Below, piece after piece: positions 33,031-33,333 of a DNA stretch of 64,000 nucleotides; position 1 is the first letter of the stretch; the number at the start of each line of letters is the position of its first letter. The stretch is from Escherichia coli. GTDB taxonomy: Bacteria > Pseudomonadota > Gammaproteobacteria > Enterobacterales > Enterobacteriaceae. Under the pieces are notes generated by a model, which worked only from the letters and a program-made list of their open reading frames with translations, did not search any database and had not been told where the DNA came from. The position numbers and the translations under genes are program-made. The DNA lies in the NCBI RefSeq assembly GCF_003334785.1, contig NZ_QOWV01000002.1; one strand, given 5' to 3'.

Positions 33031-33333
33031 ATGAAAAAAAGAAATTTCAGCGCAGAGTTTAAACGCGAATCCGCTCAACTGGTCGTTGACCAGAATTACA
33101 CCGTGGCAGATGCAGCCAGCGCTATGGATGTCGGCCTTTCCACAATGACGCGATGGGTGAAACAATTACGTGATGAGCGGCAGGGAAAAACACCAAAAGC
33201 CTCCCCCATTACCCCGGAACAAATTGAAATCCGTGAGCTCAGGAAAAAGCTACAACGTATTGAAATGGAAAATGAAATATTAAAAAAGGCTACCGCGCTC
33301 TTGATGTCAGACTCCCTGAACAGTTCTCGATAA
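33031..33333 (+). CDS. IS3-family transposase OrfA (HTH)
   Basis: [91 protein letters not shown]. Confidence 0.9.

Follow-up and report, generated by a model that had tools for sequence, protein, structure and literature searches.

The stretch of Escherichia coli DNA analysed here (64,000 nucleotides, hereafter the window) carries an insertion sequence (IS) whose two ORFs, orfA and orfB, overlap close to a run of six A's followed by a G, and the question that this locus raises is whether ribosomes change frame at that run to make a transposase, or whether the run is incidental, disabled or read in some other way. In our view the heptamer is very probably the programmed -1 frameshift site of an intact IS911-type element, ISEc52, and serves to produce the fused OrfAB protein. 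That ribosomes do shift at this copy, and how often, we infer from published work on IS911. Coordinates are those of the window, and features lie on the plus strand unless another strand is given.

An earlier note, made from the letters of the window alone, had described a heptamer A-AAA-AAG in the orfA frame, 45 nt before the orfA stop, with orfB open in the -1 frame back through it. The heptamer AAAAAAG is present at 33282-33288, inside the interval 33281-33292 that the note assigned to the site. In the orfA frame this region reads GAA ATA TTA AAA AAG GCT, and the codons across the heptamer, TTA (33280-33282), AAA (33283-33285) and AAG (33286-33288), give it the X_XXY_YYZ phase of a -1 slippery site, A_AAA_AAG. 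The frame-0 gene, orfA (33031-33333, starting at the ATG at 33031), encodes 100 aa that constitute the HTH regulator and also the N-terminal part of the transposase; its stop codon is the TAA at 33331-33333, at a distance of 45 nt counted from where the AAG codon begins, or of 42 nt counted from the end of the heptamer. In the -1 frame, nothing interrupts the stretch from 33276 up to a TAA at 34176-34178; the nearest upstream stop is a TGA at 33273-33275, and the frame therefore opens just two codons upstream of the heptamer. A stop in the -1 frame between the heptamer and orfB, which the note had named as the observation that would speak against the site, was looked for and none was found. 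This orfB frame (33276-34178) carries the catalytic domain (Pfam rve, E = 3e-31, with rve_3 and rve_2) and overlaps orfA, giving the two consecutive ORFs expected of the IS3 family. A second candidate shift site, G_AAA_AAG at 33243-33249, was rejected as unproductive, the -1 frame there ending after six codons.

Few motifs in E. coli are as shift-prone as A_AAA_AAG (PMC4066793; PMC5009743). In the mechanism that we propose, a ribosome translating orfA would arrive at the heptamer with AAA and AAG each occupied by a lysyl-tRNA; a minority of ribosomes would slip one base back, from AAA_AAG to AAA_AAA, and go on in the orfB frame. The slipped product would be a 382-aa OrfAB that joins the HTH and zipper region of orfA to the DDE domain of orfB, while unslipped ribosomes would stop 15 codons on and release the 100-aa OrfA regulator. 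Slippage would be favoured by an RNA junction 5 nt downstream and weakly, if at all, by a GGAA upstream. Abutting the 5' side of the heptamer in the -1 frame is an ATT codon (33279-33281), which occupies the position of the AUU from which OrfB starts in IS911 (Polard et al. 1991, as cited in PMC4066793 and PMC8136817). By its position this ATT may be the OrfB start here as well, and OrfB counted from it is 299 aa long.

The protein that a slip would yield resembles a complete transposase in a way that neither of its parts does. A -1 slip fuses 86 orfA codons to 296 orfB codons, and the resulting 382-aa OrfAB and the 100-aa OrfA have the sizes published for IS911, in which OrfAB is the transposase (PMC2909936). 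Against the NCBIfam model for IS3 transposases, NF033516 (cut-off 160), the fused protein reaches 380.6 bits and covers profile positions 1-368 of 369, whereas unfused OrfA scores 55 bits (positions 1-85) and unfused OrfB 318 bits (80-368), so that an end-to-end match is seen for the -1 fused product only. Pfam finds HTH_Tnp_1 (OrfA residues 1-74, E = 1.2e-12), HTH_21, rve, rve_3 and rve_2 on the fused protein. The codons of the DD(35)E triad lie between 33708 and 33998, at D227 (GAT, 33708-33710), D287 (GAT, 33888-33890) and E323 (GAG, 33996-33998; OrfAB numbering); the 35 residues separating D287 from E323 are typical of the family, and the protein thus combines a DDE domain with an N-terminal HTH. 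With the triad present and only the fusion spanning NF033516, the claim that this is the arrangement by which IS3-family elements produce OrfAB is supported.

The same evidence bears on whether the heptamer is incidental, with OrfA and OrfB acting as separate proteins, OrfB being started from the AUU and no fusion being needed. The -1-frame ATT in front of the heptamer would suit such a scheme, and so would the occurrence in the window of two more in-phase A6G heptamers followed by long -1 frames, apparently by chance. Yet orfA contributes the DNA-binding HTH and orfB the DDE domain, the IS3 model is covered by the fusion only, the -1 frame opens immediately before the heptamer, published work has OrfAB as the transposase (PMC2909936), and the phase of the heptamer is invariant in relatives of about 70% identity despite diverged flanking codons. 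We give an incidental heptamer next to no credence.

We do not rely on the heptamer as such: A6G occurs 29 times on both strands of the window against 16 expected, and by itself is weak evidence and not significant. What raises the copy at 33282 above chance is its context in a known IS together with its conservation in relatives. The relatives compared have 70-94% identity and come from plasmids of E. coli, Shigella, Citrobacter, Proteus, Providencia, Vibrio and Shewanella. The phase of the heptamer is kept in 11 intact relatives, down to about 70% identity, with A_AAA_AAA in one Vibrio element; intact relatives have a 0-frame stop 46-52 nt downstream of the heptamer and a long -1 frame, and RefSeq labels related copies 'programmed frameshift'. 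The preferred reading, a programmed site that yields OrfAB, is consistent with this pattern.

Of the other A6G copies, those at 34548 (+) and 32405 (-) are in phase and have a long -1 frame downstream. The first (34548-34554) lies in phase inside orf78 (34399-34593) of a P2 prophage, with a 0-frame stop 14 codons on; its -1 frame (180 codons) enters P2 gene B (ATG at 34584), and a slip would give an Orf78-B fusion. This heptamer is kept in P2-like phages of 94-96% identity and is absent from Enterobacter phage ENT4 (71.5%), the sole diverged relative found, and it is probably due to chance. The second (32399-32405, minus strand), upstream of P2 int, is in phase with a 49-codon stop-free stretch for which there is no evidence of an ORF, its -1 frame being the int frame (354 codons); chance is the likely explanation here as well.

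A homopolymeric run of A's could also be read differently by RNA polymerase, which might add one A within the A6 run by transcriptional slippage, leaving an edited mRNA to be translated normally. A substantial number of IS elements do use transcriptional slippage (PMC5009743), but the bacterial cases fall on runs of about nine A's or T's (PMC5009743), whereas the run here has six. Moreover, the phase is exactly X_XXY_YYZ, and the motif ends in G, the form that works best for -1 ribosomal shifts in E. coli (PMC4066793, PMC5009743); it is flanked by stimulators of the kind that act on ribosomes; and for IS911 the frameshift was described as a translational one (Polard et al. 1991, as cited in PMC4066793 and PMC8136817). 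We regard slippage by the polymerase as highly improbable and prefer a -1 shift by the ribosome.

The earlier note had proposed RNA structure prediction downstream of the heptamer as a check. Folding 72 nt of window RNA gives a minimum free energy (MFE) of -22.3 kcal/mol (z = -2.1 against shuffles) and a predicted three-way junction at 33294-33352, also backed by comparative pairing, that comprises a basal stem (33294-33304 with 33343-33352), hairpin 1 (33305-33322) and hairpin 2 (33324-33340). The spacer between heptamer and basal stem is 5 nt (33289-33293), and the UAA stop of orfA (33331-33333) forms the loop of predicted hairpin 2. The published IS911 cassette folds into the same Y-shaped three-way junction (-21.0 kcal/mol, z = -2.55), and the 72-nt fold was retained because it matches that of the cassette. 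As a prediction, the junction also agrees with the IS911 structure to which the title of Rettberg et al. (1999) refers and of which a review gives a description (PMC5009743). Folding 142 nt of downstream sequence gives a different MFE structure that is no better than shuffles (z = -0.84); the predicted junction is not robust to a longer flank.

Comparison among relatives lends the predicted junction what we consider modest support. In an alignment of 13 sequences (12 distinct relatives), 85.9% of cells are paired, against 28-44% with slid partners, for a junction that was derived from one of the aligned sequences and in a stretch that codes in two frames; four junction pairs show compensatory changes on both sides across relatives. 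RNAalifold on the 13 relatives recovers both hairpins and does not recover the basal stem. Since the region codes in two frames, its conservation is not assignable to structure alone. An Rfam scan (E-value mode) of 32800-34400 matched no family; Rfam appears to hold no model of the IS911 stimulator, and this null match therefore says nothing against the structure.

Frameshifting in IS911 amounts to about 12-13% in the presence of its Shine-Dalgarno (SD) and stem-loop stimulators (PMC8136817; PMC5009743), of which the former, an SD-like GGAG 11 nt upstream of the heptamer, favours slippage (PMC8136817, PMC5009743). We aligned the 98-nt IS911 reporter cassette (PMC8136817, Table 1) to 33262-33359 and found three differences, at 33270, 33347 and 33352. 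At 33270 a G in IS911 is an A in the window, a change that is synonymous in orfA and turns the SD-like GGAG into GGAA (33267-33270 by the cassette alignment, 11 nt upstream of the heptamer); the GGAG of the IS911 signal is thus not present here, pairing is limited to GGA, and the predicted duplex with the 3' end of 16S rRNA falls from -6.7 kcal/mol in IS911 to -3.6 kcal/mol. The A-to-G difference at 33347 is synonymous in orfB and converts a U-A pair of the basal stem to U·G, while that at 33352, also A to G, replaces His with Arg in orfB and gives the stem one more C-G pair at its base, which cuts the spacer from 6 nt to 5 nt. The stem-loop of the window is intact and predicted to be slightly more stable than that of IS911.

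These differences might affect the amounts of the three proteins. Prere and colleagues reportedly showed in 2011 that, of the two stimulators in IS911, the SD has the stronger effect and is required for initiation at AUU. Given the GGAA here, OrfAB would be expected to be lower than in IS911 and OrfB much scarcer, and the efficiency of the shift may lie below the 12-13% or so of IS911. One tentative extension, which we consider possible but would not bet on, is that ISEc52 is a naturally retuned IS911, in which GGAA would cut both frameshifting and AUU-started OrfB, the basal-stem changes might partly compensate, and the OrfA:OrfAB:OrfB ratio would be shifted. If this were true, natural variants could show the weight that each stimulator has for transposition in the wild; few IS911-type elements are spread as widely in E. 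coli as ISEc52. Among the relatives, the SD-like motif is GGAG in the IS911 clade and GGAA in ISEc52 and in the Citrobacter, Proteus and Providencia relatives, and a Shewanella element and one E. coli element have a stronger GAGGAG or GGAGG a few bases farther upstream.

The site can be placed among better-studied ones. IS911, the prototype from Shigella dysenteriae and the best-studied frameshift of the IS3 family, shares with this element its 1250 bp, 36-bp inverted repeats with an identical IRR, a 3-bp duplication, A_AAA_AAG directly after AUU and, by prediction, the three-way-junction topology; it differs in its GGAG (here GGAA), its 6-nt spacer (here 5 nt) and the CAC at positions 9-11 of IRL (here TTT). 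IS3 and IS150 likewise have overlapping orfA and orfB, a slippery site that contains A_AAG and an OrfAB fusion (PMC4066793, PMC8136817, PMC5009743), although the stimulator in IS3 is a downstream pseudoknot, in contrast to the branched stem-loop of the IS911 type, a moderate stimulator (PMC4066793, PMC5009743). The E. coli dnaX site (tau/gamma) differs in that a simple strong stem-loop drives a shift of about 45-60% (PMC8136817) and the product is truncated, with no catalytic domain added.

The frameshift site lies in a complete element. The IS occupies 32959-34208 (1250 bp) and is bounded by imperfect 36-bp inverted repeats, IRL (32959-32994, starting 5'-TG) and IRR (34173-34208, with the exact sequence of the IS911 oligonucleotide IRRb; PMC2909936), which match at 25 of 36 positions, so that the termini are 5'-TG...CA-3' as in the IS3 family. 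It is flanked by a 3-bp target-site duplication, ACA (32956-32958 on the left and 34209-34211 on the right, no strand assigned), within the 3-4 bp of direct repeats usual for that family. The window has one copy only. Its full 1250 bp are 100% identical to many copies on E. coli chromosomes and plasmids that RefSeq calls 'IS3-like element ISEc52 family transposase', ISEc52 being the RefSeq/PGAP name, which follows ISfinder; copies at 98-99% are found on Klebsiella, Enterobacter, Vibrio and Pluralibacter plasmids. Identity to RefSeq copies named IS911, such as that of BL21(DE3), is 94.0-94.1%, and over the stretches in which the prototype IS911 was compared it is 96.9% for the 98-nt cassette and 100% for two oligonucleotides. 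The alignment to IS911 that the earlier note had suggested gives 95 of 98 nt identical in the frameshift cassette and about 94% against IS911-named copies. ISfinder treats elements with at least 95% DNA identity as isoforms. The element is an IS911-type member of the IS3 family, and by these identities it is best filed as ISEc52, a close relative of IS911. It shows no sequence difference from ISEc52, its insertion site alone being particular.

At positions 9-11 of IRL (32967-32969), ISEc52 has TTT where IS911-type copies have CAC. On the circularised element, with a 3-bp spacer, we take the hexamers of the junction promoter to be TTGACC and TTTACT, 17 bp apart. Given these positions, the TTTACT of ISEc52 is nearer to the -10 consensus than CACACT.

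Whether this variant can move bears on the most serious doubt about the site, namely that it is disabled, the GGAA making both frameshifting and AUU-started OrfB too low, and that ISEc52 is mobilized only in trans, by the transposase of a related IS. We examined seven copies that differ from the window by 0-1 nt. Four of these have clean 3-bp duplications that differ from one another and lie at unrelated loci (ACA here; TAG, TTT and AGG), and these distinct duplications indicate that the GGAA variant has moved repeatedly and recently, if perhaps with help in trans from related elements. The remaining three have no target duplication and lie between truncated genes (gspD/gspJ, yicI and melB), which points to adjacent deletions mediated by the IS, or to recombination of one copy with another. 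E. coli genomes have IS911-type elements at a median of three places, and at up to 25 in one genome.

A disabled site draws some support from the change of GGAG to GGAA at 33270, which roughly halves the predicted pairing energy with the anti-SD, and from the several IS911-type copies common in E. coli genomes, which could act as donors of transposase. It has to contend, however, with independent duplications around copies of this exact variant at 0-1 nt and with the genome carrying as many as 25 places; with the occurrence of GGAA in Citrobacter, Proteus and Providencia relatives, which argues that it is no private lesion; with a heptamer that is shift-prone without stimulators (PMC4066793) and a predicted stem-loop that is intact; and with a transposase whose activity, in IS911, is reported to be about 200-fold higher in cis than in trans (PMC5009743). 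Taken together, these points make a disabled site very unlikely, and a functional frameshift site remains the reading that we prefer. The note's remark that the IS looks transposition-competent is upheld by the intact inverted repeats, the 3-bp duplication, the DD(35)E triad and the distinct duplications of the near-identical copies.

The insertion has interrupted a prophage gene. The 5' part of P2 cox (32884-32958 by comparison with P2) is 25 codons long, the next triplet being the TGA that begins the IS, so that Cox in situ ends after 25 aa; the 3' part lies at 34212-34412, and rejoining it to 32884-32958 gives a 91-aa Cox frame. When the IS and one ACA are removed in silico, 1048 bp are 100% identical to phage P2 (AF063097) across C-cox-orf78-B. 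The IS is thus a simple insertion in codon 25 of cox, and the restored P2 identity likewise defines both copies of the target duplication. The prophage runs rightwards from about 31341 (int), and E. coli sequence near yegR/yegS/gatD forms the host flank. A search of 5,426 complete E. coli genomes for this cox::IS junction found none. Cox is tied to prophage excision. The IS marks this P2 prophage as cox-disrupted, and the prophage is probably unable to excise; the insertion may also be polar on the replication genes B and A.

The element is catalogued and frameshifting in IS911 is a textbook case, so the site is already known; only the natural differences in the stimulators from IS911 and the insertion in P2 cox are mildly new. 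The analysis accordingly has little weight as a discovery, and its practical value is for annotation. Here a discrepancy had to be explained, as copies identical to the window IS carry a 'frameshifted' pseudogene flag in RefSeq. The flagged CDS extends from the orfA ATG to a TGA in IRR, equivalent to 34198-34200 of the window. In relatives that have five A's at the position of 34167-34172, the frame continues to this TGA and gives a 389-aa product, while the window has six A's there and stops at 34176-34178, giving 382 aa. Two IS911 oligonucleotides (PMC2909936) match the window exactly, O5 at 34159-34183 and IRRb at 34173-34208. We considered and rejected the notion that the flag denotes a dead element, as the six-A form matches O5 and the published 382-aa OrfAB. 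Since the 3' end of the window is that of the published IS911 oligonucleotides, we attribute the flag to the reference protein: on the sequence evidence it most likely reflects a longer reference and not damage, and looks like an annotation artefact. For this element, we recommend a single transposase CDS that unites orfA and orfB, with ribosomal slippage annotated at 33288; identical copies are not to be taken as inactivated on account of their 'frameshifted pseudogene' label.

In some relatives the site itself is altered. Some IS911-type copies (the IS911 of BL21(DE3) at its position 624, and two others at the aligned position) have lost one A from the heptamer and read A5G. With this loss orfB is +1/-2 with respect to orfA, and the normal -1 shift should be abolished; the BL21 copy is still annotated 'programmed frameshift' and has a protein accession. 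A relative of 88.6% identity on the E. coli O157:H7 plasmid pF6294-1 has a 3-nt insertion, ACA, in the spacer that separates the heptamer from the basal stem, after the GGCT that follows the heptamer. The lengthening of the spacer by 3 nt could alter the efficiency of frameshifting, and RefSeq still annotates this element as a programmed frameshift.
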